Below, one piece after another: positions 1 to 62,645 of a DNA stretch of 64,000 nucleotides (the stretch's first letter is position 1; each line of letters begins with the position of its first letter). The position numbers were made by a program, and so were the translations under genes. This DNA comes from Cyanidioschyzon merolae (lineage: Eukaryota), in the NCBI GenBank assembly GCA_000091205.1, contig AP006493.2. One strand, 5' to 3'. A model generated the notes under the pieces. It was not told the origin of the DNA. It did no database searches and worked only from the letters and a program-made list of their open reading frames with translations.

Positions 1-59
1 GCTCGGTAAATGCTCTGACTGATCCAGAAGTCTCCTCTCGCTGCCGTGCTCCTTTTCTG

Positions 60-330
60 TATCAAGTGCCGTGCTCGAAGATTACTACCTTTTTCTGAGC
101 GACCGCCTCAATTTTGAAACAATTACCGGAAGGAAAATCCCGGCTTGAGAGCAAGTCGAGACGTTTTGGTCCGTCTGCGATCCTTTGATGCGAACTAATG
201 ACATACGCTCCGTCGTAAGCGATCGCTCCGGTAACTGAATTCGGAGCCCGAGACCCTTTACCATGCAGGCAGAAGAGACTAGAGCCTCTTGGGAACATAT
301 TCCGGGAGCGGGGTCACGCTGCGGTCGAGT
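60..330. repeat. Diverged partial copy of sequence found in the long inverted-repeat arms; matches arm interval ~50440-50750 (left arm) / ~59260-59570 (right arm)
   Basis: Minus-strand ORF 62..298 (…RGSSLFCLHGKGSRAPNSVTGAIAYDG…) parallels arm ORF 50608..50802 (…RGSRLFCSHGKGCWTRTAVIAAMDSGG…). The DNA block 'accctttaccatgcaggcagaagagactagagcctct' aligns with 'accctttcccatgcgaacagaagagacgcgagcctct' at ~80% identity with indels. Confidence 0.45.
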
Positions 331-2164
331 GCTGTTCCGTCAATCGCCACAAAGTGAAGGCGATTTATCCTTCGAACCGAATCAATTATTGGACGTGAAA
401 ATTTCAGTGAACTCTATGCATGAACTTGCGCAGAAGTCGTCATAGAAGCAAGTCGAGTTCGTTTCTTCATTAATTTAGCGGCAACCATTGCTGCTCCCGC
501 AAGTTGCTTTGAAACAGAAAGATCGAAAACTAGAAGAATTCCTGATGGAATCATTGCTACTCGTACGCAAAGGAGCGGTGTGAGGGCTTGTATGTACGAA
601 TTGGATAATGGTATTGGTCACATCACGAGCCCTTGTTAGACAACGTCGCGAGGCATCTTGATACCTATTACGGAACGAATTCCAACGGCAAGGAGTATAA
701 GGAGCCGCTCCGAAAAATCGAACAAAGATCCTAAAACCACACATGAATTCGTTTGCCCTTATTAGGGCACCTGGAATACCGAGGCTGTACATGTCGAAAA
801 CTTCAGAAAAAACCCAAAGGCACTAACACAGCGAACCGTTCAGCGTTCCATGCGAATCTGACACGGGTATCGCGGTTGCATCATCGTTCAGGGCGTGCGT
901 TTATGAAAATAGAATACAATATCCAGTCAATAGTAACATGTTAAATCGGAATACTCGGGCGGTTCGTTTCATGCACAACTGTGTATCATGCACAGCTTCA
1001 TCAGATGGACTGCGCACCTTTGGATTTCGAGGACTATCTTAAGAGACCACGAAAGCGACGGAACCCGCTAACTCGAGAGAGGCCCTCAGGGCGCAAAAGT
1101 AGCTTCCTTGGGCGAAACGCGTATATAAAGAGCACGACCAAGCACGGTCACGCCGAAATGATCTACGTGGTTTTCGTTGAACTCACTTGTGAGCGCTGCT
1201 CCTGAATGATCAGTTGCTTAAGCTCTTTGTACATTCGTCTTTTTTCATCCAGTAGCTTGTTCTTCTCTTCTTCAAGAGATTTAAGGAGCGACTCTGTTTT
1301 AGCTTCTGACCCGCCTTCCGTGTCGCCTTTCTCGTCCGTTCTGCGAGACGTACTTTCACTATGTGGAGTTCGGGTCTCGCACGGGGTATCGTGCCCGCCT
1401 ACAGCGCTGCCATCCACTGGGTACGCCGCGTTGTCTGTTTCACAGCACGTCCACCCACGCTCCTGGTGTAGTCTGGCAGCAATGAACTCTTCGAAAACGA
1501 GCCAATCTTCAACACGCGGCCCCAGAAAGGAGAACATGCGCGGTTTTCGAGCAGCGTCGGACGCAAACCCCATATTTTGCTCTCAATCAAGCGAAAAAGT
1601 ATCAGTATGGTACGAATACCTCGGAAGCGCCACGTTCCACTCAGACTTGACGAAAACACGCTTGCATAGAGTGTAGCACGAGCGCAACGGCGCTCTCAAT
1701 ATTCTAGAGGCTCGAATACCATAAATCCACCTGAAGGGCGATTTGTTTTCATCGACATAACATGTACATGAACCAGAGATCCCCGATTTTTTTGATCGAA
1801 AGTATACATGAACTGGGGATCTACGATTTGTGCGATGGATATCAACATCCGGTGTGGACGGAAAAAGAACAGAAACGAAGCACTTGCCAGCGACTACATG
1901 ACAATTTATATGCCCCATTACGGAAAGCGTTCAAAGGGGAAAAGATTTCCGTATTTTCGCGACTTTACCTTCTAGGCGGAAGGTCGCGCAAGCCAGACGA
2001 GTCTGCCCGATTTGCGCTTCCTGCGACTCTGCAGTGCTGGGTGCTACAGTGAGACCTAAGCAGCTTGTGCGAAACGCAATACAATCTGAGATTAGAAGTG
2101 AGTAGAATGCTTCTGGGCGTCTCCCTGGTCGCAGTGGACTCCTAGTATATTGGTCCGCGCTGTT

Positions 2165-2510
2165 CCGGGCAGTAAGTCCATCAGCACAACTTGCAGGCTC
2201 CCAGAACGACGATGAGCCCCGATTCCGCGCCGAGTAAAGTACGCCTCGAGCCGACGCCCGCAGTGGTATACCAAAGCCGTTCTGTCTCCGAGCTGCATCT
2301 GCTCCAGCGGTATATGCGATACGACGGTCGCTCGCGGCAGGCTCGGCGCACGATAGAACGTACGAAACGAGCAGTATATCCGAGAGAAAGTACGGGTAAT
2401 CGAAATGAAAGGTAGGATGCAGCATGATGGAAGCTCTTCCAATCACCTTTACCTATCCCGCAATTTGGAATCCCCGATCGATGAAACTTTCTGTCAAACA
2501 AAAAAATTCC
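2165..2510 (-). repeat. Dispersed ~330-bp repeat family, copy 1 (SINE/MITE-like; begins with a T-rich tract followed by AG)
   Basis: The reverse complement aligns with 40990-41340 and 55805-56060. Shared blocks include 'tctcggatat(a/t)ctg(c/g)tcgtttc(g/a)tacgt', 'ccgctggagcaga' and 'agacagaacggc(t/g)ttg…gggcgtc(g/a)gctcgaggcgt'. Mirrored ORF translations agree (DRTALVYHCGRRLEAYFTRRGIGAH vs DRTALPYHRGRQLEAWFTRRRIGSH). Confidence 0.55.
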
Positions 2511-5111
2511 CCCAGTGAAGCAATCATTACGTTTCAAGATTGAAAACAATCATTCGATTCGGTTGAACTACGGAGCCTATTGAGGAATGAAAAGCAGTCC
2601 TACCCCGGTAGTCTCGGCAAAAGCTCAAATGCAAGGGGAATAGAACGATGCCAGCTTGTCGAACAGAAGGCCATCTCCAGACGTCAGGGACGGATCTTCG
2701 ATCATTCGACGAAAGGGTTGCTGTTGTATGAGCGTCCCGTACGAGCGAAACTCAGGCCGTCAAATGAATCCATTCTAGCTCGAACAGATGATGATGTCCT
2801 CGTTCTCCTCGAGTTCTACCGAACATTGCACGGGCTCCGTCTCCGCAAATACCCATATACGCTTCAACCGCTTCATCCGAAGCAAGTCTCATCGACTGAA
2901 ACAAACCGATATGGCTCCGCTTCATGCTCATCGCGACGTTCCAGCAACGCTATCCTTGCGATTTCGGTGCAAGATGGTCGCGCGTGAACTACGACTCTTT
3001 TTGCGACTATATCCCAGTGTTTTCGGGACGACACGAACAAGCCGTTCAGAAACAGAGACGCCCGTGGTGGCTGTTACCGTCGCTTTTGCTTTCCATTACG
3101 TGATCAACGGCTCGTTTTCTATCATTGGCCGAAAGCAGTCTTTCACAGTACCAGTTTCTGGCGCGTGACGCCTATACTTCTTTCTTTCAGTTTCCCCAAC
3201 CATCTGAGTGCTGTGGTACGTCTGACCTGAATGCGGAATGCAGTCCTCGTTCCACTATTCAGTAAAGAATCTTTCCTACAGAAAGTTCGTCGTCAATCAA
3301 CAATATACATTGCGTAGTGTTTCCGATCTCCTGCAACACACCACGAAAAGCATTCCATTAAATGCAGCGAAGGTTGAACAATGTTGAGTGGAAACACTAT
3401 AAACAGGCGGATCTCCTCTGGTCTGGATGCAGCAAGTCGCTGATATGTCGCAGGATGTAACACTCGGTTTCAGGGAACTTTTATCGAGCTTTGGGACGAT
3501 TCCAGATCTCCTGAACGCTCTCGATTTGGCATCGTTCTGAGTTGTCGATTGCTGCAGCGTATGGACGTGGAGCCGTTCTCTGAGGAATTCCGATAAAACG
3601 CTTTCGAGTGCGTCTCAATTCGACCTAGGCATGAACAGCCGGGGCGTTGGAAGCGCCTCGGAAACGTCAGGCTGTGTGCAGCACATTAGCATTTGCTTGG
3701 GCAGGAAGCAAGGATTCCGCCTCGCATCACCTACATCGAAAGTGATCAAAGCATACAATCAACGCATCCGCCAGCTCAAATTCCAAAGTGCCAGCGAATG
3801 GACGGCCCGGTCGCGCTGGCGAACCTTGTGCGCAAGCCTCATGAGGAATCCCCAAACCTCTGGCGTATCCTGGCATCTGCACTTACCGATTCGCTTCACG
3901 AACATTCACCCATGCGCCGCAAGCAAACGCATTCCTGGCAGCAATGCTTTGTATGCGGATATTTCGTTAATATCGAAGCTTACAGGTTATCTTTCGCTGC
4001 AGCGACAGAACAGGGCATGCCGTGCAGCTCCGGCTGTCGCAAGCTTATTTGCAACCCTTCTCCTGAATCACGTATAGGCGACTGCGAACCGGCAACTACA
4101 GATTGCAGCTTCCGAGACGCGAACCAGCTTCTAATCGATGCCGGCGACGTTGCTCGCTATCGCACGCTGGCGGCAGCGCGTACCAGTCTCCCGTCGACGC
4201 ATGGGGAACGAGCATACGCAATCCAAATGCTCGTGTTTCTGTGCGTCATTCTCAAAATATATAGCTTTGTCTCTATCATTTGTCTGCCGATCCATGCACG
4301 CCCGTGCTGCTCGCATCGCCCCGTTTTCTCGACTGCACCATCAATCGATCATTCGAGCCGAATTCCCTGCATGCAGTGCGATTGCCGTCCGCAACCAAGG
4401 AAGCGTGAAGACACCTCCATGCCTTTCGGGGGCGCATGCAGCTCGCAGAAGACCCCGATCACTCGTCACGTTGCGTAGAACGCATGAACCCAGCGAATGC
4501 GCCATTGCTCAGCGCCATTTGAACCCCCCGCTGCGTCGCCGAAAGCGCCATCCACGCGATACCCGCCCAGCAACAGCGCAGCAGCGTCGACTCGAGACAC
4601 GCCTCCGGTTGCCTCGTGATCGACGAGCACCCGCAGCGCGTGCAGATCACCGGCGAGGGCAACGAAGAAGCCGCAAGGGGCATTGCGCTCCGGATTCGAG
4701 CTGCCAACGGACGCGCGCGTCCAGCGATGCGATGCGACGCGCTGGGGATCACGACGCCACGCATCGCCTTCGATTTTCTCCCAAAATGCGTTCATTTCTA
4801 CCACAAGTTTCGCGGGCTCCAACGGCGAAATCCATTTTTGGTGGGGACACGTGTCCGTTGTGATGGTGCGTTCCTGGCCAGTGAAATCTCTAAGGAAAAC
4901 AGAGCTCGAGACACCTCGACTGGATTCTTCTGCGGCGTGGCGGTTGTGGACAGACACCGTCGGCTACGTGGCATTATGTGGTGACGCGAACTTGCGAAAT
5001 CCATTCACGTGATCGTTGATTGTCGTTGTCTCTGTTCGAAAAGAAGACGTCGCAGAGAGCGTAGCGTTTCAGGTTGTACTACGCAAGATTTCTTCAAAAG
5101 GGTAAAATATA

Positions 5112-6020
5112 ATGCAGTACAAACTTCAAGTGCGCAACTTTATCTTCGTAGTGCTCAGTCTGGCGCTGCTCGTGGGCCTTGCCTCGAGTGTGGCCGCTGA
5201 AGCCCTGGACACGGAGGGTCGCTGGTATCAACAGCAAGTGACGGTGACTCCACAGGTGCAGTGCACACCTGTGACGTACACAGCAACTTGTGTGCCGAAG
5301 CAGGCGTGCGTTCAGTACACGACACAACAGGTTTGCGAGAAAAAGCAGACCGTATGCCAGCAGGTGCAGCAGGTGCAGCAGGTGCAACAAGTGCAGCAGG
5401 TGCAGAAGACGGTGATTCCGGTGAAGAAGACCGTCATGCCCATGAAGAAACAGCCCATGTATCGCTGGTACCAGTACGAGCAGGTTCAAGCAACGGCTAC
5501 GCCAACGCCGATTTGCACCCAGGTGTGTCAGTACGCGAACGTGCAGGTCTGTGCTGCCTACGAGCAATACGAGGTTTGCAAGGTTTGCACGCAACAGTAC
5601 GAGGAAGTTCAGAAATGTCAGCAGCAGTACCAGCAGCAGTACCAGCAGCAGTACCAGCAGCAGTACCAGCAGCAGTACCAGCAGATGTATCGGTGGTATC
5701 AGCAGGTGCAGGTGACCCAGTGCCCGGTTGAATGCCAGGCGGGTCAGGTGCAATGCCAGTACGTGAAGCAGGTGATCTCGACACCGAAGGTACCGTTGAC
5801 GAAATTGCCGCCACCACCACCACCACCAAGTGTGACGCCAGTGCCAACGGTAATCCCTACCGTCATCCCGACGACCGTCATTCCTACGGTCATCCCGACG
5901 ACCGTCATTCCAACGATCGTGCCAACGACCGTCATTCCGACAGTCGTCTCGACGACGATCATTGCGGTGCCTACTACGTCACCAGTCTCGGTTACGGAGA
6001 TGTCGTCAAGCGTATATTGA
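5112..6020 (+). CDS. Secreted cysteine-pattern, Gln-rich protein with Thr/Pro/Val-rich mucin-like C-terminal tail (family member A)
   Basis: N-terminal hydrophobic signal peptide (FIFVVLSLALLVGLASSVAAEA). Cys-pattern segments 'QVCEKKQTVC' and 'VCAAYEQYEVCKVCTQQYEEVQKC', plus RWY motifs. (QQV)n and (QQY)n trinucleotide-derived runs. PPPPPPP followed by (TVIPT)n repeats. It shares the 'VCEKK' and C-x2-Y-x5-VC-x6-[VI]C-x-[VA]C patterns with ORFs 53222..54382(-) and 56625..57701(-). Confidence 0.6.
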   Translation: MQYKLQVRNFIFVVLSLALLVGLASSVAAEALDTEGRWYQQQVTVTPQVQCTPVTYTATCVPKQACVQYTTQQVCEKKQTVCQQVQQVQQVQQVQQVQKTVIPVKKTVMPMKKQPMYRWYQYEQVQATATPTPICTQVCQYANVQVCAAYEQYEVCKVCTQQYEEVQKCQQQYQQQYQQQYQQQYQQQYQQMYRWYQQVQVTQCPVECQAGQVQCQYVKQVISTPKVPLTKLPPPPPPPSVTPVPTVIPTVIPTTVIPTVIPTTVIPTIVPTTVIPTVVSTTIIAVPTTSPVSVTEMSSSVY

Positions 6021-8740
6021 ATTACATCAGGAGCACTGGGTTGAGCCCGGATGGAGGCAGAGGGGTACGAGGCCAAGATCGGCCTTTCGTATGGAGAGAA
6101 CGAATTAGAGGCATTGGAATCGGGGTAGACTTTCAGGCGATGGAGCTAGTCAATGAATACATTACTTCTATGAAATGGAAAGGATGTCTCTCGGCCGCAG
6201 TGCCGTGACTAGAACTTGTGACGAAAAGCATCGAAGAGAAGAGCCAGCAGCGATAGAGAGGTGTGCTCTAGTCTCTGGCTTTCTGCGCATTATTCATTTG
6301 CGCTTTTGCCAATCCCCGTTGTGGCCAGTCAAGTGCAGTGCGGTCGAAAGTGGGCAGTGTACTCTATAGATGGAAACGCAGGAGATGGAGACCTTGAGAT
6401 CGCATGGGGATGGACCGATACGGATCGTAAAGATGCATTCTGTAGTTTTCTGGTGATGTCGAGGACGCATTCGTTTCGATCGAGCACTTTTTACTTACCG
6501 ACCTGGACACTGCTGTCTCATTCGGAGCGGCACTCCACGAGCGTCTTTGTTTTACTGCTACTGTCCTGGGGCCTGTGTGATGCTCTCCTGAAAGCGTCAG
6601 CGTTCCGGAGGGATCGCCCACGCACTGGAACGAGCTACGCTGTGCAAGCGCCTATGCGTGCGGCCCCTGCAGTCTCCAGGCACGAGAAAATGTTCATTTC
6701 TTGGAAGCTCGGATGCCTTCTACGAGAAATCCGTCGTCGCTCAACCCGAAGCAGGAGTTAAACACGCGAATCGGCAACGCGGGACACGAAGCATCGTGTT
6801 GCAGCGAACGAAATGAATGGTTGCATCGCATTCGACGCAGTCGTCGGCTGACACAGACCATGCAGCGCCAGAAACCAGAGCTTCTGGGATGAAGAAGGTG
6901 TTCCTCTTCAAGGGGCCCTCGTACGCCTGCAGTGGCCCTGGAACAAAAACGATGGCACCTTTGGTATTGTGGCAGGCGCAGCTCCGACACAATCCGACAA
7001 AGTCAAGAGTTCGGCTTTGAAATATATCAGAGGCGTCTGTGCCAAATCGCATGTCCGCGAATACAGCAGGGAAACCAAAGTCATTCCCAACGACAGAGAG
7101 AAAGAGGGATTTTGGGTGCAGAGCAACAGGCTGAACTCGAATCCATGTTCGCGGTACACAAGACGCTTTATACCTGTATCAGAATAGAATGGAAGAGATC
7201 GATGCTGCCGAATCCGGCCCACATGGCATCGTTTTGATATATCCCCAATACCATTATCACCAGACTTTGCGGGGATTTTTCTGTTACTCCCTACGTTTCC
7301 TCTAGTTTGTCTCTGGCTTTAAATAGGTTGATATCTCTTTTCTCTACAGCTCCATTGGCAGCAGTTGAATGATTATGACGACAGCGTTCAAGTACCGATT
7401 CCACCTCTTCCCGGTGTTGGCGACGCATTTATTGCACATCCGGTAGATTCGATATCCGTTTCACTTTCCGTTTTCATCGTCTTTGTATCCAGCATCGTTG
7501 CACCCGTCGCAGCAGCTACACTCGATTATGGTCAGGTGTTTCGATATACGCACTGAGTCTCTTCCTCGAAGCCCCGACTTATGGCACGTAAACGCTCGCT
7601 TCATCGCACGGCACACGCCCTTGTCGGGTATAGAGGGATACCCCCGATGCGCTCTAACTTTTCCGCGCCTGGTATCGTACCCGACGATCATGCCCCTCTA
7701 TTTGGCGACCCTTCGGTGAGAACCCTGTTTGTTGCTCACGCAAGCCAACGCTGCACCGTTCGACAGAGGTTTTGTGAAACGCAATGTTATCCTTGAGGAA
7801 AAAAGTAGCGGATGCAAAATCCAGGTTGTAGAATGCTCGTCGAGCGTTTTGATCCGTTGCCTGTTTTTTGTTGCGACATGGTGAAGCACTCTTGACCGGA
7901 ACCGATCGCTTTGATGACTAAAGTCCGAGTCCAAGACCCTTGTCCATATGAAAAGAAGAAGCAAGAGCCTCCAAAAGCATGGCTCGTGACAGGTTTCATG
8001 CTGGTGTCGAGTGCAGTATCGTCGGTGGTCACCGAGAGAGGAGCACTTGTTTTTCGAGCGGAATAGATTAAGCGAGATAATATCTCGTTGAACTTTCGGC
8101 CCGATTTTGTGAGCAATTGATCGAGGGACGACCTCGGGCTGTTTTCCTTGTCTAGGAAGCGATGCGAACTGCTGTGCTAGCGAGTTGCCTCGAAACAGCA
8201 AGATTGAAAGCTTGGAAAATGCGTGATTTGAGCCTACTATACATGAGGAAAGGAGAAGAGTGGAAAGGTGCACGCACGGATTTGATCAGGTTATCGCTAA
8301 TTTTAAAAATCCTTGTTCAGTTGCTTCACGAATCATCTGGATTCCGGTGTCGTAACGAATTCCAGCGGCGAACCGTCGAACTAGTCAATCCGAAAAGACG
8401 CCCGAGCATCTTAAGATTTCGTATGCATTTTCAATCTTTGGTTGCTGCTCTTCGACTGTTCAAACTGTACAGATTTAAACATGTTCGGAAAAAAGATCCA
8501 AAGGCAGGAAGAGAACAAGCGGTTTAGGGTTTCGTGTTCTATGAACCTGGCTGGAATGCATGCACCACGTCGTAAACGAAACAAGTATGATACGTTTGGG
8601 ATAAATATGGATTATAAGGACGCATGACGGAAAGTGGCCCCCGCGCCGCGCGCATGCGAAACTGTTTCTTCCAGCTCCAGGCTGTACCCAGTGCCGCACT
8701 GCTAGTATAGCGGATCGCACTGGGCTGTGGATTAGGTCTC

Positions 8741-18680: not shown

Positions 18681-18897
18681 TACCGTCAAAAAAGCGCTCT
18701 TTGAGCGACTCCATAGCTTCAAACGCTGCCACCAAGCTCAGACCTGCAGATTCTACCTACACAGCAACTAGGTGTGCCCTCACCGTCAACAAAGCGCTCT
18801 TTGAGCGACTCCATAGCTTCAAACGCTGCCACCAAGCTCAGACCTGCAGATTCTACCTACACAGCAACTAGGTGTACCCTCACCGTCAACAAAGCGC
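18681..18897. repeat. Tandem repeat, 100-bp unit x ~2.2, immediately upstream of the UBR4-like gene
   Basis: Unit 'caccgtcaacaaagcgctctttgagcgactccatagcttcaaacgctgccaccaagctcagacctgcagattctacctacacagcaactaggtgt(g/a)ccct' recurs at 18681, 18781 and partially at 18881, with a period of exactly 100 bp. Confidence 0.8.
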
Positions 18898-18950
18898 TGG
18901 TGAAGTGACTCGTATACAGATCATTACTTCGAATAGCTGGCGCTTCGCTG

Positions 18951-21900
18951 GTGTCGGCCAGAACGAACGCCCGCTTTTCGTCTATGCTGAATGGCTCTGC
19001 TGGGATTTCGTACTCAGGACGACGCAATCTCCGAAGCAATGTTCCCCTCGATGCCGGGCTTCTTCTTCTTCTTCTTGTTCATAAAGTGCCAAACATGGAC
19101 CAAGTCGCGGCTTGTTTCAGAGCAGCATATGCGGATGCGGTTGGGAGCACTCCTTTGCTAGCGTCCGCTGAGGAACGTGCGGTCTTCGTCAAGAACTCGC
19201 TCGAGTTTGCGTTAAAGGTCGAAGCACAGTCCAGAGACGTTACCGCAGCCGGAGCTGAGCAGCAGCGAACCGAGATTGATCGGGCGAGACAGCGACTTTG
19301 GTTCTTCTGTGTGGGTGCTGCTGAGCTCCTGAAGGAACCTGGGGCTCAGTTTCCTTCGCCTTCCTTGGTTACAGCTGCCCAGCAGGCTCTTCGCCAGCGT
19401 CAGCAACATTGGTGCAATCGCCTCGCTGCTGCGAGTCGCTTATCGGCTGATACTACCCTGTCAACTGCTGACGAGGTGGATTCGCTGATAGCCCTAGTCC
19501 GAATAGGGCTGACTGTGCTTGGCCTCTTCGTTTGCCTGAGTATCCTCGGAGAGCGTGAACACTGGCGGGGGCCGTTTCTCTGTGAGCTCTGGCAGCAAGG
19601 CCGTGCCGTCTATGAAGCCTTGGAACGACAAAAGGCCTCGTCTGCAGCTTTGAGAACGACCGCTTCCTTCTTACAGAGCTACTGGTTGGATGCACTCTGC
19701 ACTGCTACCTGGTGGATCGCTGACCTTTCCAATCATGCTGCGGCAACAGCATGGACGCTCGACACATCCCCATCCAGTCTGCTACAAATCAGAGACTCTG
19801 CCTCTGCTCAATGCTCAGTCTGGAATCCTCTTCACTGTAGTTTTACTCAGCCTTGCGCTACTATCCGGGACCAGCACTGGAATTGCAGAGGCTGCAGCGC
19901 CCTGCAAGCCTCATCCTGGACTCCTCATCAATGTACTTTCCTTCTGACTGGACGCTCGTTTCGTGACCAGCATTGGTATCGCTGTAGCACTTGTGCCTTT
20001 CGGGAGGATGAGGGCGTCTGCACGAGCTGTGCACTCATATGCCATGCCGGACACGAGGTTTCGTATGTTCGTTTCAGCGGCTTTTTCTGTGACTGTGGCG
20101 CCAATGCTGCTGCTACGACACCCCGGACAAAGTGTCTCTTATGTACGCTGGTCAGGAGCGAAGAGACATCTTCGACGACGAGCTCTAGCGAAGCCCTGCA
20201 TACATCAACGGAGACGCCCAGAGGTGCTGAACGACGTCCCGCCAAGGCGCCCGAACTCCGTGACGAACACTTGCTGTGGATGAGGCCGCCCTCCGTGAGC
20301 CCGTTGGTGGAGCTCGACTCCACCAAGGCCTGCTTCTACCACGTTTTCATGGAAATTGCCCAGCTTCATGGATCGAGCGACCGCTGCCCTGTCCGCGACG
20401 CTTCGGGTAGCGGAGAAACTGCTCCGGCAGGCGTCCTTCTTGCGAAGGCGATTACAGAACATTTACAATCAACATTCGAGTGGCTTCGCGACAGCGTTTT
20501 GTTTCGTTTTCTACAATCACCGACACCAGGGGAAATACCCCTAGAGACAAATGCTCAGTCGCAGAGCGTTGTGCAAATGCCCGGCACAGAGCAAGCTCCG
20601 CGGAAAGCGTTCCTTCCAGCGCTGCACAGAGCAGCTGCTGCTGGAGATGAGTCGCCCCGCACTGCGACCTGCAACGCTCGAGATGTACGGGAAATTCAAC
20701 AGGACACATGCCAAGTACGCGGAGCCGGCACTTACATTCAGCGAGCGACCTGGAAACCGGAAGCCGTCCAAGTCCTCACGCGTGTGCGCCACGTGGACAC
20801 GAACCAGGGACAGTCGACGCTGGGCATGGGGGTGTTTTGGCAACTGCTTCCCTGCGGAAAGCAGGAGGCCAGGAACCCACGCGAGCTGCATTGGCACCAT
20901 GAGCCGGTACTCGCCTTCGTCGATGGACTCTTTCTCGTGACGTTAGCGGCTTCCGAGCATCACGTTGCATTTCTATCCGATGAAGCGGATATTCGCAGGA
21001 GTTCAGCATCGGTGCCAGTGCACCCGAGTTCGGAACCGCTCGAGAGAGCTCCACTTGCTGGTTGTGCTTGTACAGGCACAGTGAGATCCACTCGTCCAAC
21101 AGCACTGGATGCTCGGCGCTGGATACGACGCCCTCTGGGCTTCTGCGCAGGTGAACTGGGATTTGCACCCAGCTGCCCGCGACGGGGAAGTCTGCAGCGT
21201 CTCCTTGCGCTCAATCGAGAAACGTCAACGCTACGGCTGTACTGCGTTGGCTCGACAGTCGCGGATGTCGATGGGTCTTTGCACGCCCAAAGCTGCGCTA
21301 GCGAGTCACCAAGTCGTCCTGTTGCAGCTGCGGCACATCCGGTGGTGGAACCCGATAAAGTTCGATCGGTGACGCTCCCAACGTCTGGGCAGTCGTTCAC
21401 AGCGTCATGGGGTACCACTGATGCGGCTGCGGCTGGTGATGGAACAACTGTTGTTCATTCTGCGGAAGCGCTTGTTGGTGCATCAGGCTCACGACCTGCT
21501 CCTGCTGGTCCTTCTGCGAACACTGCCACACTTGTGAACGCTGTTGGCGTTTCTGCTGATGCCGTTGTAAGCGACCAGCTAGCCGAGTATCCGTCTAACA
21601 CCCGCAGCAGGATGCAAGCACCAGCGAGACGATCGACGATTCGAGCACATCGGGCTCAACGGGTGCTGCAACGGTGGCGTGAGTATCACCAGGTTCACGC
21701 AAAACGCTGTTTGCGTCTGCTGCTCCGACCAGTGCCTGGCCCAGGAGCAGCGAGTGCGGAGGGCGGTACAGCGTATGGCGCTGCGGAAGTGGCAACTGTA
21801 CCGAAGACCACGCCTGCGACGCTGTCGCTCGAGCAGCCTGAACGCTCGTCCACTGGCACGATGACGTTCGCAGCGCCGGCTGAAGCGTCACAATTCGGTG

Positions 21901-32329: not shown

Positions 32330-32641
32330 GTGATCAACCGCTGGGGGGAGTGGAAGTACATGCCTCGGTCCGCGCGCCTAGTCGCGACGGAGGTGTCCAA
32401 GACGATTTACCTGGGGAATGTGGTATACATCGATGAAAAAGGCCAGTTTCAGTGCTACGGATCTTTAATTGCGTCTGAATCTCAAGGAAATTGCATAAGG
32501 ATGATAGCGATTCCATCCAGGCAACTGCGTCCAGTAAAGGAGACGGAGAAGAAGAAGCCTGGCTCTGCGAGCAAGTATGATATTTATGAGCAGCTTTACG
32601 AGGAACATCGGAAGTTCCCGTTCAAGTTTTGTTGTTTATAG
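32330..32641 (+). CDS. Hypothetical small protein (103 aa) in AT-richer convergent intergenic region
   Basis: ORF only. The beta-rich N-terminal segment (TIYLGNVVYIDEKGQFQCYGSLIASE) is loosely reminiscent of small Sm/KOW-like folds, but no motif could be confirmed. Confidence 0.15.
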   Translation: MINRWGEWKYMPRSARLVATEVSKTIYLGNVVYIDEKGQFQCYGSLIASESQGNCIRMIAIPSRQLRPVKETEKKKPGSASKYDIYEQLYEEHRKFPFKFCCL

Positions 32642-37112: not shown

Positions 37113-38387
37113 GGCATTCGAACGTGTCCAGTACGCACAGAGTCCAATTCGAGCTCAACACGATAACTACGAAAGCAACAAAGATAGAACGCTCAATGAA
37201 AGGAGGAAAACTGTTATTCAAGTTGTGAGTGTTTCCGGTGTGTAGCTTGTCTCCTAGGTTTGTTAGGGAGTCGTTGAGCGTCGCTGGTTGACGCACTGTT
37301 GTTTTCCAGTGAAGCTGGCCGGTCGCTGGTCGAGGCGCGATCTCGAAATTGGCGCGAGCGGCGCTCGCTTTCTCTGTCTAGCGCCCGACGCAAACCAGAA
37401 GTTTTCATGGAATCTGTTGAGACAGGCGCGAAAACGCTGAGGCGCTGATATGTTATCCTTGGCTTGGAGGTACCCGAAAAGAGATTGTTGCTTGGGTAGT
37501 TCAAGAGAAACAGCGTCAAATAGCGGATGTGGGCGGGGATAGTGAAATGGTTGTATAGGGAACTGTTCCCGGTGCCTACTGGAGCGGTGGACTCCCGAAG
37601 AGCGTCTATTTACGGGAAGTATCATTCGGCGGTGCCGAGGACTAGTTCGGATACCTAGCTGCAAGCTATATGAGCGAAGAGTGTATAGTAAAGGGAAATC
37701 CTTTTGATACAAAAGTTGGACTGCGTGCTTTTGTCTCTTGAGGTCTCGAAAGCGGTGGCGTTTCTGTGTGGCCTATCGATACGTGTTATCTGATGGTGCC
37801 GGGCGTGCGTGACCTATGCTTTTCTGATTGACAGAGCGGTTACGAAGACCGAGAGTCCACCCGTCCTTCCCTCGGAGATAATGGTGATTTCGTACATTCC
37901 ATGGTACGCTGCACGGAGACAGAACGTCTTTGCCTGACGCTTACGCGCGGGTCCAGTGCATGTGCGTCCGCAAATGCCAGGCATCGATAGCGCCCCTACT
38001 GAGGCGAACTTGCGCGGGCGCAGATATCCAATATGCAGCGACTAATGGTTGTCGCTGCCCGCGTTACACACTCTGTGGGATGATATACATAGATTTATGG
38101 GAGTTCAAGCGGATTCGCAGCTCTCTGCCCAAAAAGAAGCGTTCGAGGTTCATGTATGTGCGAATTTTTCGGTATGACGCGACATGTCGTAACACGGCTA
38201 AATGAGCAGCCCCGAACAAGCCCGCTGATTCGATCAAGCGACCGCGTCCTTAGAGGACGTCGGGGGCGGCACCGCGGTACCCGTCCGCAATGCCACGCTC
38301 CACAGATTCTAGGCTAGTATCCGCCTATCGCTGGTCGCTTTATCGTGACACGAACGCATAGGCGAGACAGCTGCGGGGGGCTCTCGT

Positions 38388-40719: not shown

Positions 40720-40989
40720 ACGCCGTTCTAAACTCGAACGACGCCGACCGTGTACCGTAGTGGCGACGACAGCGCCCTAGACAAGAAGTCTCCGATTGAC
40801 GTGCAGACGCCCCCTCGCCTTTTGGACCGGCCAACTACTACTGCTTCAAACTTTTTCTCATATAGTTCGACTTTGAGAGGTTGTCCAACAAAGTTCTGTC
40901 TTGTCCATGCTGGAGGTCTCGTCTCCAGCACCGCACATCTCCTGACATTGATTTTTTTCATTGACAAAACGTTTACTTAGCCTATCGTT

Positions 40990-41340
40990 CTCCGATTGTG
41001 CGCTAGTTCTTTTCTTACTTTTTTGTTTTTTTCAGTGCGAGGTGAGATATCCATCAACCCCCTACCTCCAAGTTACGCTACCCAGAATTTTCCTCGGATA
41101 TTCTGGTCGTTTCATACGTCCTATCGTGTGTGCCTAGTACCTGCAGTTCCGTATCCGCCTCTGGGCCTGAACCGCTGGAGCAGATAATTCATAGAGACAG
41201 AACGGCGTTGCCGTACCACAGAGGGCGTCAGCTCGAGGCGTGGTTCACCCGGCGTAGAATCGGGTCTCATTGTCTGTCTGTGCTCGGACAGTCTGCGGAT
41301 GCAGGCTTGTCTTCGCTGCACGACACGCTGGAGAAACTTG
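40990..41340 (+). repeat. Dispersed ~330-bp repeat family, copy 2 (begins 'cttttcttacttttttgtttttttcag|tgcgaggtgag')
   Basis: Aligns with the reverse complement of 2165-2510 and of 55805-56060. It has a polypyrimidine tract plus AG at the 5' end. It lies ~300 bp from the 3' end of the degenerate LINE. Confidence 0.55.
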
Positions 41341-47906: not shown

Positions 47907-50900
47907 GTCACGAAAGCCATCCCATGGCAGCTTTTGCTGCGGCTGATCGCTTTTCCTCTCTCTTAGCTCCGGGCTGGAATACGCCGGTCTCTACTTTCTT
48001 TCCAGCACTGTTGTAGGCTGTCGAGGGATGCTAATCGCGGCGTTGGGGTCGCAGTTTCACAGGTTCCGGCAGTTGCCTGCGTATTCGATGTACAGGCGGA
48101 GGTTGCGATTGACGGATCGCTTGCCGTTTTCTTCGTTTCCTAGAATTCAGTACTGGTGCGCGCCTCGTAGCGGTTAACCTGGTTGTGTTCAGATATTCCC
48201 GTATGTGTTCACGAGCTCGCATTCCCTGGGAGCCGACCTGCAGCATGCGAGCGCTTGCTGCATCCCTCCGTAGCTGTCGTTGACGGGTACAGAAGGCTCT
48301 ACGCGATGCCTTGCTCCGTTTTCGCGCCCAGTGCTGTGCCCCGTGATCATGCACTTGCTCTTCTGGACGACTTCTTGTGCGAGTGCGCTGCCCGCTGCAC
48401 TCGCAAGCGCACGCTATTCCATTCGGTACCTCAACAACCGATTCCTTGTGCGCTCTTGCTTTCCTGCGTTCCCTTCCCACAAACTGTGCAGATGAGCGTG
48501 ACGGGCCATCAGGTCCGATTGTGCCACATGCTTGTGATAATGCCGCCAAGGCTACTGGGACTCTCTCCTGTCTCACTCGTTTGCGCGTCGGACGAGTGCC
48601 TCACTCGCTCACCGTCCGCTTAGGCGAACATATGAGGTACTCGAGTCCAAGCTACGACTTTGAGCGGGAATCGGCGTGTTCGAGACTCGCGGCTCCAGTG
48701 CGTCGTCGGTGACCACAGGCAAGTCGGGCATCCCTTCGGATCTCGCAATCATCGTGAAGGTTCAGGGACCCGGTCTCTTTGGGTCCAAGTTGAGGCCGAT
48801 CGCATTGGGGAGCAAGTTCGCGCCGCCGCGCATCCCAGTTGTTCGTTGTTCATCCACACATTTCCCCCTCTAACCAGGGTGCATCTGCACCCTGACGATT
48901 CTTCAGTCGTATAGAGCGTTCGCGCTTGACGGCGATGGACACACTCGCGCTATCGGAAGCGAACGACGACTCTACTTCTCCTGTTGGAAGCGCGAAGCTC
49001 CGGTTCCTCCGGTCTCCCTTCGCCTCCGCGCCCTCCTGCGCGCTCCGTCGCTTCTCGCTCGTCAAGCGGTTCATGAGTTTCTTCGAATCTTCGGGTGCGG
49101 GCGCATAGTTCGCTGTCTGGGCTTGCACCTAGCGATCAGCCTCTCTTCCTCTTCCTCGACACACTTGTTCTCCATCGGACGCATCTGCGTAACCCTCGCG
49201 CGGCGTCACGATCCACGACAAAGCGAAAAAGTGTGCTTGCTGGCAGTGCCACGAGCCACGGAGACGTGCGTTCGTAAAAGCCGCGTACTCCTCCCCTGAC
49301 GGAGGCTCTGGACCGGCACGCTGGGTGCAGACGCGCCATCGCATTCGTGGGTGCGTTAGTCGCATGCGACAGGTCCATCTTCGAGACAACGTCCTCGTCG
49401 CGAAGGGCCAGATGACGGACATTCATCATGGTCTCCCAATCCTTCGAGCCGACTGGCTGCAATGAAGCGTCGGTCATGAAGAGCTCCTTCATACCGCCCA
49501 TGCCGGTCGCCGAGTCGTCGCACTTTCGCCTCCACCCCATAGAATCTTTCACGTGCCGGTGGAGGTGTATGCTCACCCTTCTCAGCGTCACTGTGCGTAT
49601 CATTCCCCGTACCCATTCGTATTATCTGGGGCGCTTTGAGTCACCAAGCGAGAGAGGCCCTCGACGCTCCCAATGCTGTCCAGCTTGGGAGCCGACGTCC
49701 GTGCGTCGCCGATGAAGGCTAGTTGCGGGTCAAGTCTGCCTGGTGCGCACTCGGGGACAACTAGGACGAAAAGCTTATCGGTGTCAGCTGCGCTTCTACA
49801 AAGTGCTGGACGTTTCCAAAGACCTCGGCACACTCGAAGCACGCGGACTTGAGTTTGAGGCAAGCGTGTCGCCGGAGCTTGCTGCAAAGAACCACCAGGT
49901 ACATGTCGCGTGCCACGTGTTCCGGTGGGAGCACGCACGTTCCAAGCTGGCACTGAACGACCGCCGTTTCCGGCAGTAACGATGAGCGCCGCTCCTCGTC
50001 CGTGAACACACCCAAGCGAAGCGTTCCGTTCAGGAAACCGCCCCGTCCGAGACTGGCGAGCTCGTCTGGAAGCGGTACGCATCTCTTTTCGTTACGCTCT
50101 TGGACGATTTTCGTCCAACTACACAGTCGTTTCTCTGAGACCTCTCGTGTGCGGCGGTTGTGTGCCTCCGTCGATAAGCATGCCGTATAACTAAAGTATT
50201 TATACCTTGTTTTTCTCTTCGTACTACTTCGGAATTCCACGAACCGCAATCGTCAGCGAGTTTCCCTATACAAACTCCAACAGGTCCATTGGTCTGAACG
50301 GCAGTTCCTCGAGCACTGGGCATCAGTTCGTGTCGAGAGCGAGCCGCGTTATCCCGAAGCGTGCATCGGCCTCTCTGAGGCTGCGTTTGACGGCCCCGCA
50401 ACCGTTCTCCATCGGTTTGAAACACAGAGCATAAGCTGGTGTGTGCGTGTGCAGGATGACCAATGCCCGCTCTTTGCTGTTTGCCGAATAGAAGGGAATT
50501 CGTGGAACGCGTTGCTGTCTATGATGAAACACGCAGTGGCTGGAGTGGAACTCCAGATTCGCGACGCAGCGTAGAAACGTCGATCCGTCGGCGCTCCTGC
50601 CGTGCCGCTAAGCGATGACGCACTTGCCACCGGAATCCATCGCTGCGATGACTGCAGTCCGCGTCCAGCACCCTTTCCCATGCGAACAGAAGAGACGCGA
50701 GCCTCTGGGAGCGGATCCCACGGGCGGGAATGTGGTTGTGGTGGTGGTGCTGCTGCTCCTGCTGCTGCTGCTGATTTCGGGTCCCTTCTCTTCGATGGCC
50801 ACGGAGCGGGCTGGAATTGTCTTTCGGGCGGGATCGATTGCTTAACGTGACGAGCTCATTGAGCTTTCGGCGGGAGCGTGTGGAGAAGTCACCAAGGGAT

Positions 50901-51299
50901 GGCGCCGCGCTCCTTTTCTCGTCGGGTCGGCAGCGCGAATCGTTGCGCCTACGAGTTGCGTCGCGACTGAAATGACGAAAACTCGAAGAATACGTGATTC
51001 GAGCGTGATAGACGTAAGGAAAGGAGGAGCGTGGCGGTCACTCACATGAACAGGACGGTGATATCGAATATTTTTTTGAAATCTTTTTTTAGGACGCCGC
51101 ATTTCGTCTTGATTCCAGAGCCGTAACGAGCTGCAGTTGTGAAGCATTGAACGAGCCATTGCGAAAAGACAACCTAGAGTCGGAGAACGGACCGTGAATC
51201 CGAAATTCCTTATTATTGGACTTTGAACGTCTAGGATGTGTATCTATAAATTTTCAGGAGGAAATTGAAAGATAGAAACATGTCGAACCGCTTAGTGCT
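47907..51299. repeat. Left arm of a 3,393-bp long inverted repeat (~98-99% identical to 58707-62099)
   Basis: The coordinate sum is constant (x + x' = 110006) for mirrored ORF pairs (48031..48576 vs 61430..61975; 50842..51159 vs 58847..59164) and for hand-checked end sequences (cgaaagccatcccatgg… vs …ccatgggatggctttc). Protein-level differences of 7 in 181 aa imply ~1.5% nucleotide divergence. Confidence 0.85.
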
Positions 51300-54750: not shown

Positions 54751-54798
54751 TCGCACAGAATGCATCGCACAGAATGCATCGCACAGAATGCATCGCAC
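54751..54798. repeat. Short tandem repeat, 14-bp unit (tcgcacagaatgca) x ~3.4
   Basis: Direct reading of 54751-54798. Confidence 0.7.
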
Positions 54799-55804: not shown

Positions 55805-56060
55805 AGCCAATTCCTCGAGCCGACGCCCTCTGTGTGCTACGGCAACGCCGTTCTGTCTCCGTGCAGCGACCGCACCCGCGCTATAGGCGCCATTGCTGTC
55901 GCTTTCGGCAGGCTCGGCACAACATAGGACGTATGAAACGACCAGAATATCCGAGAAGAAGTAAAGGTAATGTAACTTGGAGGCAGGGCATTTGGCGGAT
56001 ACCTCATCGCGCACTGAATAAAACACAAAAAAGTAAGAAAAGAAAAAAGCGCAGAGTCGG
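55805..56060 (-). repeat. Dispersed ~330-bp repeat family, copy 3 (3'-diverged/truncated), located between the two mucin-like genes of the cassette core
   Basis: The reverse complement 'ctttttgtgttttattcag|tgcgcgatgaggtatcc…cctgcctccaagttac…tctcggatattctggtcgtttcatacgtcctat…agacagaacggcgttgccgtagcacacagagggcgtcggctcgagg' aligns with copy 2. Mirrored ORFs agree (PPSYITFTSSRIFWSFHTSY vs PPSYATQNFPRIFWSFHTSY). Confidence 0.5.
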
Positions 56061-56624
56061 AGAACGCTGGCCTATGTCAACATCTTGTTAATTTAAAAAA
56101 ATAGAAGCCGATTCCACGGAAATATGAAAAGAAAAATTACGTATGTAGTTACACGTGCACCGACGGGTAAATTGAAATCGAGAAGAAACCGTGAATCTCC
56201 TAGGACGTATGTGGCGGAACAGATGCATCCCGAGGCGAGTTCGTTGCTGGATGAGTCTTGCGTAGGTGACATGTAATGGACCAGCCCCGAAATGCGACGG
56301 AGGACCTCGGTGCAGCTAGCACTCGCTTGTTAGGTTACGTCCAAAAACTGGTGAACTAGCTGAAACTTGCATTAGCAGTAGTCTAGGCAAAAGGCATGAC
56401 AAATCATAATGCGGAACGTAAGTGTTTCTCAGATTTATCCATTTGAAATATATAGCACTACATAAGGGTTACCAAGAGATGCGCCTTCGAGTCTTCGAAA
56501 GTATCCTCATTTCGCTGCAAGTTTCAAACCGAAGACTGCATCCATTCAGGTCGTTTGCTGCTTTACATGGCAGCAAGGACATGAGTTCATTGCGAAAAGC
56601 GTAAGATAGACATGCAAACATCCA

Positions 56625-58706: not shown

Positions 58707-61700
58707 AGCACTAAGCTGTTCGACATGTTTCTATCTCTCCATTTCCTCCTGAAAATTTATAGATACACATCCTAGACGTTCAAAGTCCAATAATAAGGAA
58801 TTTCGGATTCACGGTCCGTTCTCCGACTCTAGGTTGTCGTTTCGCAATGGCTCGTTCAATGCTTCACAACTGCAGTTCGTTACGTCTCTGGAATCAAGAC
58901 GAAATGCGGCGTCCTAAAAAAAGATTTCAAAAAAATATTCGATATCACCGTCCTGTTCGTGTGAGCGACCCCCACGCTCCTCCTTTCCTTACGTCTATCA
59001 CGCTCGAATCACGTATTCTTCGAGTTTTCGTCATTTCAGTCGCGACGCAACTCGTAGGCGCAACGATTCGCGCTGCTGACCCGACGAGAAAAGGAGCGCG
59101 GCGCCATCCCTTGGTGACTTCTCCACACGCTCCCGCCGAAAGCTCAATGAGCTCGTCACGTTAAGCAATCGATCCCGCCCGAAAGACAATTCCAGCCCGC
59201 TCCGTGGCCATCGAAGAGAAGGGACCCGAAATCAGCAGCAGCAGCAGGAGCAGCAGCACCACCACCACAACCACATTCCCGCCCGTGGGATCCGCTCCCA
59301 GAGGCTCGCGTCTCTTCTGTTCGCATGGGAAAGGGTGCTGGACGCGGACTGCAGTCATCGCAGCGATGGATTCCGGTGGCAAGTGCGTCATCGCTTAGCG
59401 GCACGGCAGGAGCGCCGACGGATCGACGTTTCTACGCTGCGTCGCGAATCTGGAGTTCCACTCCAGCCACTGCGTGTTTCATCATAGACAGCAACGCGTT
59501 CCACGAATTCCCTTCTATTCGGCAAACAGCAAAGAGCGGGCATTGGTCATCCTGCACACGCACACACCAGCTTATGCTCTGTGTTTCAAACCGATGGAGA
59601 ACGGTTGCGGGGCCGTCAAACGCAGCCTCAGAGAGGCCGATGCACGCTTCGGGATAACGCGGCTCGCTCTCGACACGAACTGATGCCCGGTGCTCTAGGA
59701 ACTGCCGTTCAGACCAATGGACCTGTTGGAGTTTGTATAGGGAAACTCGCTGACGATTGCGGTTCGTGGAATTCCGAAGTCGTACGAAGAGAAAAACAAG
59801 GTATAAATACTTTAGTTATACGGCATGCTTATCGACGGAGGCACACAACCGCCGCACACGAGAGGTCTCAGAGAAACGACTGTGTAGTTAGACGAAAATC
59901 GTCCAAGAGCGTAACGAAAAGAGATGCGTACCGCTTCCAGACGAGCTCGCCAGTCTCGGACGGGGCGGTTTCCTGAACGGAACGCTTCGCTTGGGTGTGT
60001 TCACGGACGAGGAGCGGCGCTCATCGTTACTGCCGGAAACGGCGGTCGTTCAGTGCCAGCTTGGAACGTGCGTGCTCCCACCGGAACACGTGGCACGCGA
60101 CATGTACCTGGTGGTTCTTTGCAGCAAGCTCCGGCGACACGCTTGCCTCAAACTCAAGTCCGCGTGCTTCGAGTGTGCCGAGGTCTTTGGAAACGTCCAG
60201 CACTTTGTAGAAGCGCAGCTGACACCGATAAGCTTTTCGTCCTAGTTGTCCCCGAGTGCGCACCAGGCAGACTTGACCCGCAACTAGCCTTCATCGGCGA
60301 CGCACGGACGTCGGCTCCCAAGCTGGACAGCATTGGGAGCGTCGAGGGCCTCTCTCGCTTGGTGACTCAAAGCGCCCCAGATAATACGAATGGGTACGGG
60401 GAATGATACGCACAGTGACGCTGAGAAGGGTGAGCATACACCTCCACCGGCACGTGAAAGATTCTATGGGGTGGAGGCGAAAGTGCGACGACTCGGCGAC
60501 CGGCATGGGCGGTATGAAGGAGCTCTTCATGACCGACGCTTCGTTGCAGCCAGTCGGCTCGAAGGATTGCGAGACCATGATGAATGTCCGTCATCTGGCC
60601 CTTCGCGACGAGGACGTTGTCTCGAAGATGGACCTGTCGCACGCGACTAACGCACCCACGAATGCGATGGCGCGTCTGCACCCAGCGTGCCGGTCCAGAG
60701 CCTCCGTCAGGGGAGGAGTACGCGGCTTTTACGAACGCACGTCTCCGTGGCTCGTGCCACTGCCAGCAAGCACACTTTTTCGCTTTGTCGTGGATCGTGA
60801 CGCCGCGCGAGGGTTACGCAGATGCGTCCGATGGAGAACAAGTGTGTCGAGGAAGAGGAAGAGAGGCTGATCGCTAGGTGCAAGCCCAGACAGCGAACTA
60901 TGCGCCCGCACCCGAAGATTCGAGGAAACTCATGAACCGCTTGACGAGCGAGAAGCGACGGAGCGCGCAGGAGGGCGCGGAGGCGAAGGGAGACCGGAGG
61001 AACCGGAGCTTCGCGCTTCCAACAGGAGAAGTAGAGTCGTCGTTCGCTTCCGATAGCGCGAGCGTGTCCATCGCCGTCAAGCGCGAACGCTCTATACGAT
61101 TGAAGAATCGTCAGGGCGCCGATGCACCCTGGTTAGAGGGGAAAATGTGCGGATGAACAACGAACAACTGGGATGCGCGGCGGCGCGAACTTGCTCCCCA
61201 ATGCGATCGGCCTCAACTTGGACCCAAAGAGATCGGGTTCCTGAACCTTCACGATGATTGCGAGATCCGAAGGGATGCCCGACTTGCCTGTGGTCACCGA
61301 CGACGCACTGGAGCCGCGAGTCTCGAACACGCCGATTCCCGCTCAAAGTCGTAGCTTGGACTCGAGTACCTCATATGTTCGCCTAAGCGGACGGTGAGCG
61401 AGTGAGGCACTCGTCCGACGCGCAAACGAGTGAGACAGGAGAGAGTCCCAGTAGCCTTGGCGGCATTATCACAAGCAGGTGGCACAATCGGACCTGATGG
61501 CCCGTCACGCTCATCTGCACAGTTTGTGGGAAGGGAACGCAGGAAAGCAAGAGCGCACAAGGAATCGGTTGTTGAGGTACCGAATGGAATAGCGTGCGCT
61601 TGCGAGTGCAGCGGGCAGCGCACGCGCACAAGAAGTCGTCCAGAAGAGCAAGTGCATGATCACGGGGCACAGCACTGGGCGCGAAAACGGAGCAAGGCAT

Positions 61701-62099
61701 CGCGTAGAGCCTTCTGTACCCGTCAACGACAGCTACGGAGGGATGCAGCAAGCGCTCGCATGCTGCAGGTCGGCTCCCAGGGAATGCGAGCTCGTGAACA
61801 CATACGGGAATATCTGAACACAATCAGGTTAACCGCTTTGAAGCGCGCACCAGCACTGAATTCTAGGAAACGAAGAAAACGGCAAGCGATCCGTAAATCG
61901 CAACCTCCGCCTGCACATCGAATACGCAGGCAACTGCCGGAACCTGTGAAACTGCGACCCCAACGCCGCGATTAGCATCCCTCGACAGCCTACAACAGTG
62001 CTGGAAAGAAAGTAGCGACCGGCGTGTTCCAGCCCGGAGCTAAGAGAGAGGAAAAGCGATCAGCCGCAGCAAAAGCTCCCATGGGATGGCTTTCATGAC
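58707..62099. repeat. Right arm of the 3,393-bp long inverted repeat (partner of 47907-51299)
   Basis: See left arm. End sequences were verified by reverse-complement comparison. The inner boundary is atgtcgaac(c/a)gcttagtgct (51280-51299 vs RC of 58707-58726). Confidence 0.85.
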
Positions 62100-62645
62100 T
62101 GAGGGAAGAGATGCGAGCTTTGCAGAGCTAGCCCTAGCTGGCTGGTCCGTTCCATTTCTGTCTAGTTTTGGAAGTAGCAAGTCGGTGGAGCGCTAGGGAT
62201 CAGAGTTCGCCAGAGTGACCGCCTCCAGAGATGCAGAAACGCCGACCTTTAACTTGTTCTTGGTGTTGCTTAAAGGAATGTTTCACCTAATCCGGATTAT
62301 ACACGATATCATGACTGCTTGATAGCAAGAACGCCAGTGCATTCCCTACCGCATTACACGTGGGGTTTCTCGGTGGTGTTGGAGAAGCAGTCTACCGATG
62401 AAGGCGGACCTCATTGCGACTAGATTCTTATCGTAACGGAATGACAATTTTCTCATATCTTTCGCTGATCGTACATCATGAAGAGAAGCAAAATAAGATG
62501 AAAACTTCCGCAGAAGCACATAGATGACGGATACCATGAAGGAAATAACCGCACGAAAAATGACGCATGCGGGCGGCGTCACCCGTGCCAGCGCGCCCCC
62601 GGCATCGCGCCTTCGACATGGAGCGATTCTCTCCACGGTTGGACG

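Follow-up and report, generated by a model that had tools for sequence, protein, structure and literature searches.

A 64,000-nucleotide stretch of the Cyanidioschyzon merolae genome (contig AP006493.2 of GenBank assembly GCA_000091205.1; hereafter the window) contains three genes for secreted mucin-like proteins at two loci, and both loci are bordered by copies of a non-coding dispersed repeat of ~1.3 kb to which we have given the name E. One locus, the cassette at 47907-62099, holds two of the genes between inverted-repeat arms of 3393 nucleotides (nt) that differ by 40 mismatches and are ~99% alike. The other, near the left end of the window, holds the third gene, paralog A, between two further E copies. 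We consider it probable, if far from certain, that the repeats at these loci are relics of mobile elements, and that they were retained because the genome has a few intervals that are poor in genes and dispensable, the same intervals in which rapidly evolving genes for surface proteins reside. The youngest two relics would in addition have undergone conversion.

The E repeat and the arms of the cassette

A first-pass annotation of the window, made from its letters, had noticed a diverged fragment resembling the cassette arms in the first ~330 nt, and the alignment of positions 60-330 to the arms with a proper local aligner had been named beforehand as the test of that claim. The resemblance is real. 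Smith-Waterman alignment places 128-312 on 50542-50728 of the left arm with a score of 50, against 12.5±1.3 for 200 dinucleotide shuffles (z = 28). The homologous region is also larger than had been noted, extending over about 1-866. Whereas blastn with default settings recovers just 214-312 against 50631-50728 (72% identity, E-value 3.5e-7), sensitive blastn aligns 128-851 with 50542-51295 of the left arm (58%, E-value 1e-30), the outer part of the copy (2-107) aligns with the outer arm segment at 48266-48377, and positions 352-1295 of an nhmmer profile of E fall on window 1-866. This copy, A, is accompanied by a second, B, which had been missed in the first-pass annotation and which lies on the other side of paralog A, 1.2 kb 3' of the gene and in the same orientation as copy A. 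Sensitive blastn aligns 116-852 of copy A with 7798-8536 of copy B (60%, E-value 2e-52), and copy B in turn matches both the outer part of the arm (7271-7762 against 47952-48425) and its inner part (7771-8406 against 50499-51177), with a Smith-Waterman score of 115 against 14.4±1.3 in shuffles. Over the E copies, alignment scores stand 54-91 standard deviations above those of shuffled sequences. A three-way alignment reveals that copies A and B represent one ~1.3-kb unit that corresponds to the arm minus its 2059-nt middle segment.

Within the window, a degenerate 28-nt pattern designed from the best-conserved block of E hits the four copies and nothing else, and it has no hit in 100 shuffles. 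A scan of Joint Genome Institute (JGI) metagenome contigs with this pattern returned six contigs, four of which are 98.8-99.5% identical to the window. In all, five E loci were seen: copies A and B, both arms, and copy D on contigs L007/L008, which comprises the inner ~650 nt of E and adjoins a DnaJ gene (on L008), with no family gene within ~3 kb. Pairwise identity among the E copies is 57-59% in every comparison and is even along their length. Mismatches show no preference for any of the three codon phases (p = 0.44-0.97), and tblastx gives similar scores in all frames and prefers none. The inner end of all copies coincides within ~20 nt, and the outer end is variable.

The nature of E was approached through the structures by which mobile elements are usually assigned to a class. 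Comparison of the outer 220 nt with the reverse complement of the inner 220 nt gave scores at shuffle level in A, B and both arms (p = 0.29-0.97), so that no terminal inverted repeats were found, which speaks against a miniature inverted-repeat transposable element or other class II element. Terminal direct repeats of E were not found either, nor were clear target-site duplications or duplicated flanks around the young arms. A solo long terminal repeat (LTR) is not supported: the arms have no duplicated flanks, copy A resembles copy B no more closely than either resembles the other copies, and no reverse transcriptase (RT), gag or integrase signal lies between A and B. A coding origin was set aside for lack of a preferred tblastx frame and of codon phase among the mismatches. 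Neither the open reading frames (ORFs) of the arms nor translations of the three minus-strand frames of the arm match a Pfam family, and a 255-aa minus-strand ORF in the majority consensus of the E copies (P ~0.01 against shuffles), whose match to HTH_32 is non-significant (E-value 0.078), is a weak lead only. E is like internally deleted non-autonomous DNA transposons and solo LTRs in that it forms a well-delimited non-coding stretch of ~1.3 kb whose boundaries recur from copy to copy, and in that a longer form has the same two ends. It is unlike them in that neither terminal inverted repeats nor LTR-like direct repeats nor target-site duplications were found, and in that the long form shows no transposase or RT signal. 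From the star-like divergence of the copies, the absence of a coding signal, the one shared end and the failure to detect E at the orthologous site of a relative (see below), we infer that E descends from a non-autonomous mobile element that spread in an old burst and of which only relics are left.

The arms appear to be E copies into which further DNA was inserted. The junction lies at almost the same place in copies A and B, and it is therefore simplest to suppose that the long form arose by insertion into E rather than the short form by deletion. The insert contains several overlapping minus-strand ORFs of 130-160 aa, which look protein-like in places and require frameshifts; it has no Pfam or PDB sequence match, and PDB sequence searches with two arm ORFs were empty. 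At the right arm, E homology runs 72 nt past the arm boundary (flank test 15 against 7.8±1.2 in shuffles, p<0.002); past the outer boundary of the left arm it is marginal (p = 0.056), and past the inner boundary of the arms it is not significant. At the 40 sites that distinguish the arms, contigs from two metagenome samples (L006, L009 and L011) carry mosaics of left-arm and right-arm alleles, with counts of 22R/8L and 31R/7L, and the mosaic is nearly the same in the arm linked to GFAT (glucosamine--fructose-6-phosphate aminotransferase; L009) and in the arm linked to the cassette interior (L006). This pattern suggests gene conversion between the arms, as in concerted evolution, or else assembly collapse. 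Taken with the 72-nt overhang, it favours a view of the arms not as a unique structure but as E copies that conversion has kept similar. Arms of 3.4 kb could also permit inversion of the segment that they bound; no inversion isomer was seen in three contigs.

Table 1. Features of the window discussed in the text
Feature	Position	Strand	Remarks
E copy A, short form	1..866	+	cut by window edge; sensitive blastn, three-way MAFFT, nhmmer
136-aa ORF with coiled-coil-like C-terminus	1163..1573	-	from ORF list; between copy A and R1; candidate only
R1, fragment of putative LINE-type tail	2202..2508	+	core 2244-2400; 3' part diverged
Paralog A, secreted Cys-rich protein with mucin-like tail	5112..6020	+	302 aa
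E copy B, full-length short form	7257..8550	+	direct relative to copy A; blastn, MAFFT, nhmmer
UBR, UBR-box ORF	18951-30839		3962 aa
X, non-coding dispersed repeat	31349-33718		~2.4 kb; second copy L008 6514-8896
R4, gene with E3_UbLigase_R4 domain	33870-37112
Degenerate fourth R piece	37860..37913	-	between R4 and Der1 genes; nhmmer E-value 0.001
R2, putative tail at 3' side of LINE relic	40952..41280	-
LINE relic, degenerate	41300-44800	-	frame-shifted RT ORFs 42758-44113 and 42181-42630
GFAT	45335-47770
Left inverted-repeat arm	47907..51299	+	E copy (47908-48428 and 50465-51316) split by insert
Insert in both arms	48432-50490		2059 nt (2.06 kb); absent from copies A and B
Paralog 2	53222-54382	-	386 aa
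R3	55813..56100	+	A-rich 3' end; between the two cassette paralogs
Third family paralog	56625-57701	-
Right inverted-repeat arm	58707..62171	-	arm 58707-62099, E copy with same insert; E homology to 62171

The left edge of the window and the X and R repeats

The first-pass annotation had proposed that a second cassette, or its remnant with an inverted arm, extends beyond the left edge of the window. Metagenome contig L010, which comes from the same species and is 98.8% identical to window 1-3028, reaches 778 nt past that edge. Copy A is complete in this contig (2163-3380 by nhmmer), ends ~340-430 nt left of the window start and is a short form without the 2.06-kb insert. None of the 778 nt, including the 426 nt past copy A, contains an inverted E copy, and the last 128 nt (3679-3806) belong to a different repeat, X, whose right end in the window (33591-33718) they match at 98% identity. 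Copy A does have a partner, but this is copy B, which lies on its right-hand side, is directly oriented and has only 59% identity to it. The surroundings of paralog A accordingly differ from the cassette in three respects: the flanking E copies are direct and not inverted, they are 59% and not 99% identical, and they lack the insert. The idea that the window start is the inner arm part of a second cassette lying leftwards draws on a real alignment to the inner segment of the arm, and the inspection to the left covered 778 nt; however, copy A is a short form and terminates inside the stretch that was inspected. Its inner end faces paralog A, on the right, where its partner also lies, and on the left there is an X repeat. 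We therefore give a hidden cassette almost no credence.

X is itself a dispersed repeat without a preferred reading frame. The window copy, between the UBR and R4 genes, is 56.5% identical to the copy on L007/L008. It is absent from the orthologous intergenic region, 174 nt long, of a relative whose GFAT protein is 77% identical (hereafter the 77% relative) and whose contigs share with the window the gene order UBR, R4, Der1, mitochondrial carrier, GFAT.

The 330-bp repeat that had been placed about 2 kb from the window start is likewise present there. This repeat, here called R, occurs in three main copies, and R1 matches the other two with E-values of ~1e-29: 2202-2416 matches 41280-41061 on the reverse strand (71%, E-value 7e-29) and 2244-2416 matches 55813-55987 (75%, E-value 3e-29). 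The R copies are 23-28% diverged and have imprecise ends. R2 lies ~1.5 kb 3' of, and on the same strand as, RT ORFs that belong to the relic of a long interspersed nuclear element (LINE) between the mitochondrial-carrier and GFAT genes, where the 77% relative has just 1.9 kb. The RT ORF matches RVT_1 (E-value 1.6e-15), and its best PDB matches are to LINE-1 ORF2p (E-value ~1e-13) and also to R2, a name not to be confused with that of our repeat copy. In R2 coordinates, the 5' starts of the copies differ (41280 for R1, 41238 for R3 and ~41039 for L007/L008), and a 3' end at ~40952-40956 is common to R2, R3 and L007, the 3' part of R1 being diverged. R2 and R3 both run into an A-rich tail. Because R lies 3' of the RT ORFs on the same strand, ends in an A-rich tail, and combines a shared 3' end with differing 5' starts, R can be identified from its sequence as the putative 3' tail of a LINE-type retroposon present in 5'-truncated copies, with presumed continuity between the RT ORFs and R2. 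It resembles the 5'-truncated copies of other non-LTR elements in adjoining an RT relic and in its shared A-rich 3' end and variable 5' starts, and differs from them in having no pure poly(A) tail. The 5' starts of R1 and R3 are no more than ~40 nt apart, and these copies may therefore represent a unit, similar to a short interspersed nuclear element, that borrows the LINE tail. Rfam searches of the R copies in E-value mode gave no credible match.

R pieces occur at the LINE relic beside the mitochondrial-carrier gene and between the R4 and Der1 genes, so R is not tied to family genes. R-like pieces are also found in the 77% relative, at L012 4410-4466, the syntenic R4-Der1 site, and at L012 13122-13170, downstream of GFAT. 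A core of ~50 nt (CCTCGAGCCGACGCCC...GGTAT.GCAA.GCC) is recognisable across species whose intergenic DNA is otherwise unalignable, including at the syntenic site. Related LINE tails may have been inserted independently in the two species, or the motif may be conserved.

The secreted-protein family and its association with E

The mucin paralog that the first-pass annotation had read at 5112 is indeed a paralog of the two cassette genes (BLASTP E-values 2e-7 and 8e-5). The protein has a hydrophobic N-terminus, read by eye as a signal peptide, followed by a Cys-rich domain and a tail of T/P/V-rich repeats. The three paralogs share invariant Cys, R-W and Y positions, among them ~12 invariant Cys, and over seven aligned sequences 10 Cys of the N-terminal domain are invariant and R-W motifs recur. 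The tails consist of 15/27-nt repeats encoding T/P/V/I in paralog A and of 21-nt and 81-nt repeats in the other two genes; tandem-repeat periods range from 9 to 213 nt and are all multiples of 3. A profile of the three N-terminal domains retrieved 13 proteins at an E-value of at most 0.001 among 1.84 billion representatives, mostly alleles or orthologs of the three genes together with three more distant relatives of the same layout (signal peptide, Cys-rich domain, S/T/P-rich tail). The family thus numbers about three genes per genome, which does not agree with the earlier suggestion of a repeat-associated contingency gene family. The N-terminal domain has no Pfam match, and its low-confidence AlphaFold2 model (pLDDT, the predicted local distance difference test, 58), with three long beta-hairpins, gave meaningless Foldseek matches and no fold match. 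The predicted signal peptide and long S/T/P-rich tandem-repeat tail recall mucin-like cell-surface glycoproteins, to which the family adds a Cys-rich N-terminal domain without Pfam or structural counterpart. Literature searches returned no description of this protein family or of the E, X and R repeats.

The paralog 2 ORF shifts frame within the 21-nt repeats and stops at 53222, and a 427-aa ORF (51946-53229, minus strand) takes over in the TPTTKPP frame and leads into 213-nt repeats in which G, S, Q and P abound. The distant relative P0128, of 889 aa, has a similar G/S-rich end. Paralog 2 may thus be a truncated longer gene; on the independent contig L003, its ORF ends at about the same point. 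Paralog A has an ortholog, P0001 (89% identical), on JGI contigs L001/L002, from what we call the 85% relative. The sequence 3' of this ortholog (L001 1408-1587, and L002), past the equivalent of window position 6307, has 72% similarity to a stretch of the cassette interior 5' of paralog 2 (window 54952-55130); the window has no such copy near paralog A. This similarity hints that the family loci were once linked or exchanged flanks.

In the 77% relative, a PT-repeat (mucin-like) gene lies on the minus strand ~2.3 kb downstream of GFAT, at a place where the assemblies break or diverge. E is not detectable downstream of GFAT in this relative (Smith-Waterman scores at shuffle level), and the position of the gene is therefore older than E. 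Its two contigs L012 and L013 are 99.8% identical to ~940 nt past GFAT and diverge completely after position 13296, one assembly leading into a PALP-domain gene and the other into the PT-repeat gene; this is either a structural polymorphism or a misassembly at a repeat. Contig L004 was set aside because it looks chimeric.

How the repeats and the genes came together can be outlined as follows. An old burst of a non-autonomous element would have left E copies that are about equally diverged and share one end; two of these, the present arms, would have acquired the 2.06-kb insertion, and gene conversion has probably kept them ~99% alike. LINE tails (R) would have inserted as 5'-truncated copies. 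The relics may have persisted at the family loci because these are gene-poor, dispensable stretches of a very compact genome, and the resident repeats may then supply homology for conversion and rearrangement. Several observations weigh against this account. Each of the four E copies in the window has a family locus as its neighbour, an arrangement with a chance of ~1% on a rough estimate (3 independent copies in 4 of ~15 intergenic slots); it implies some real association between E and the family, so that passive accumulation may not be the whole story. E fits no transposon class tested, given the absence of terminal repeats, clear target-site duplications and Pfam matches. The E loci number only five, the search pattern was designed from three of them, and L007/L008, the source of copy D, may stem from another species. 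Finally, the shared mosaic of the arms could come from an assembler that collapsed the two arms.

The association might alternatively have arisen by segmental duplication of an ancestral unit of E plus a family gene, E never having been mobile alone. E does lie upstream of a paralog in the same orientation twice, copy A 4.2 kb before paralog A and the right arm 1.0 kb before the third paralog; E and the paralogs are both star-like and deeply diverged, and the 72% match in the 85% relative would fit a former linkage or flank exchange. Yet the spacers between E and gene retain no residual similarity while E keeps 59%, which argues against the duplication of whole units unless E alone is under constraint. 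The only spacer match is a 25-nt motif (21/25) at 6801-6825 and, in reverse, at 56537-56561, which is not significant after multiple-test correction. This motif lies downstream of paralog A and of the third paralog, in the same orientation relative to each. In addition, copy B and the left arm misfit the orientation of such a unit, copy D adjoins a DnaJ gene without a family gene nearby, and in the 77% relative no E can be detected beside the mucin-like gene that follows GFAT. On balance we regard co-duplication as unlikely.

A different explanation would make E a functional non-coding module that brackets stage-specific surface-protein genes, either as a boundary or silencing element (for example, a site of nucleation of histone H3 lysine 27 trimethylation, H3K27me3) or as a recombination substrate by which these genes are inverted, converted or switched. 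Both family loci of the window are bracketed by E on both sides, full-length copies that have the same boundaries and are still 59% identical have survived in a genome that is very compact, and the arms appear to evolve in concert. In C. merolae, H3K27me3 marks transposons, repeats and some genes, according to work cited in PMC13353863. On the other hand, identity is uniform along E with no conserved core, no Rfam family matches (a search of the whole window at the gathering threshold gave no credible match), the divergence between copies A and B is far too great for recombination, and neither the location of copy D nor the syntenic mucin-like gene of the 77% relative, with no detectable E beside it, agrees with a bracketing function. 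We consider such a module improbable. It is a similarly speculative thought that the direct E pair around paralog A and the inverted, concerted pair around the other two genes are two states of one system that delimits stage-specific surface-protein loci, E serving there either to nucleate or to bound facultative heterochromatin or as a pair of arms for recombination.

The wider proposals of the first-pass annotation hold in part. That the family is embedded in a repeat context is borne out within the window, where every E copy borders a family locus, but E and R also occur away from family genes. Likewise, the arm-like repeat, the 330-bp repeat and the family gene do recur together, but the case for one specific module is weakened, as R is a putative LINE tail found elsewhere, copy D lies by a DnaJ gene and the relative's gene is without E.

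Genomic setting and significance

The window is eukaryotic and nearly intron-free, with a G+C content of 48-60% and long uninterrupted ORFs. The closest named matches of the GFAT ORF are from Galdieria and other red algae, and a 100% identical protein is found only in JGI metagenomes. With the gene order shared with the 77% relative, this points to a cyanidiophycean red alga as the source. In addition to the genes in Table 1, the window contains ORFs for ribophorin I, whose ATG is 205 nt 3' of E copy B, a SpoU methylase, a PHD protein, Der1, a mitochondrial carrier and a short-chain dehydrogenase. ARAGORN found no tRNA in the window, and Pfam searches of more than 30 ORFs from its first 8.8 kb and from the arms found no domain; the 136-aa ORF between copy A and R1 is without a Pfam match. 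A 100-nt unit is repeated 2.2 times at 98% identity at 18682-18898, just 5' of the UBR-box ORF. On a rough sum of repeat coordinates, about a quarter of the 64-kb window is old repeat sequence, and this is clustered around the secreted-protein family.

In the two-speed genomes of filamentous plant pathogens, genes for secreted proteins lie in repeat-rich compartments. Subtelomeric gene families have been described in Cyanidiophyceae (PMC13353863). The present loci resemble such compartments in that lineage-specific, fast-evolving secreted-protein genes occupy stretches of transposon relics and show signs of conversion, and differ from them in their tiny scale, with three genes in two loci, and in their interstitial position between housekeeping genes. 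The family is also different from the Hog, TFF and kelch families described for these algae.

Few free-living eukaryotes have genomes as compact and as poor in transposons as those of the Cyanidiophyceae. The window fits the figures published for this group, with a G+C content of ~55%, introns in 0.5% of genes and, in C. merolae, ~0.7% transposable elements (PMC8504449). The loci described here reveal no new mechanism. For annotation, it is worth masking and cataloguing the repeat families E, X and R, and the cassette arms are best treated as members of the E family. For the biology of these algae, the window is a small, useful example of the way in which repeats and rapidly evolving surface genes become neighbours and of the concerted evolution of kilobase-sized inverted repeats.

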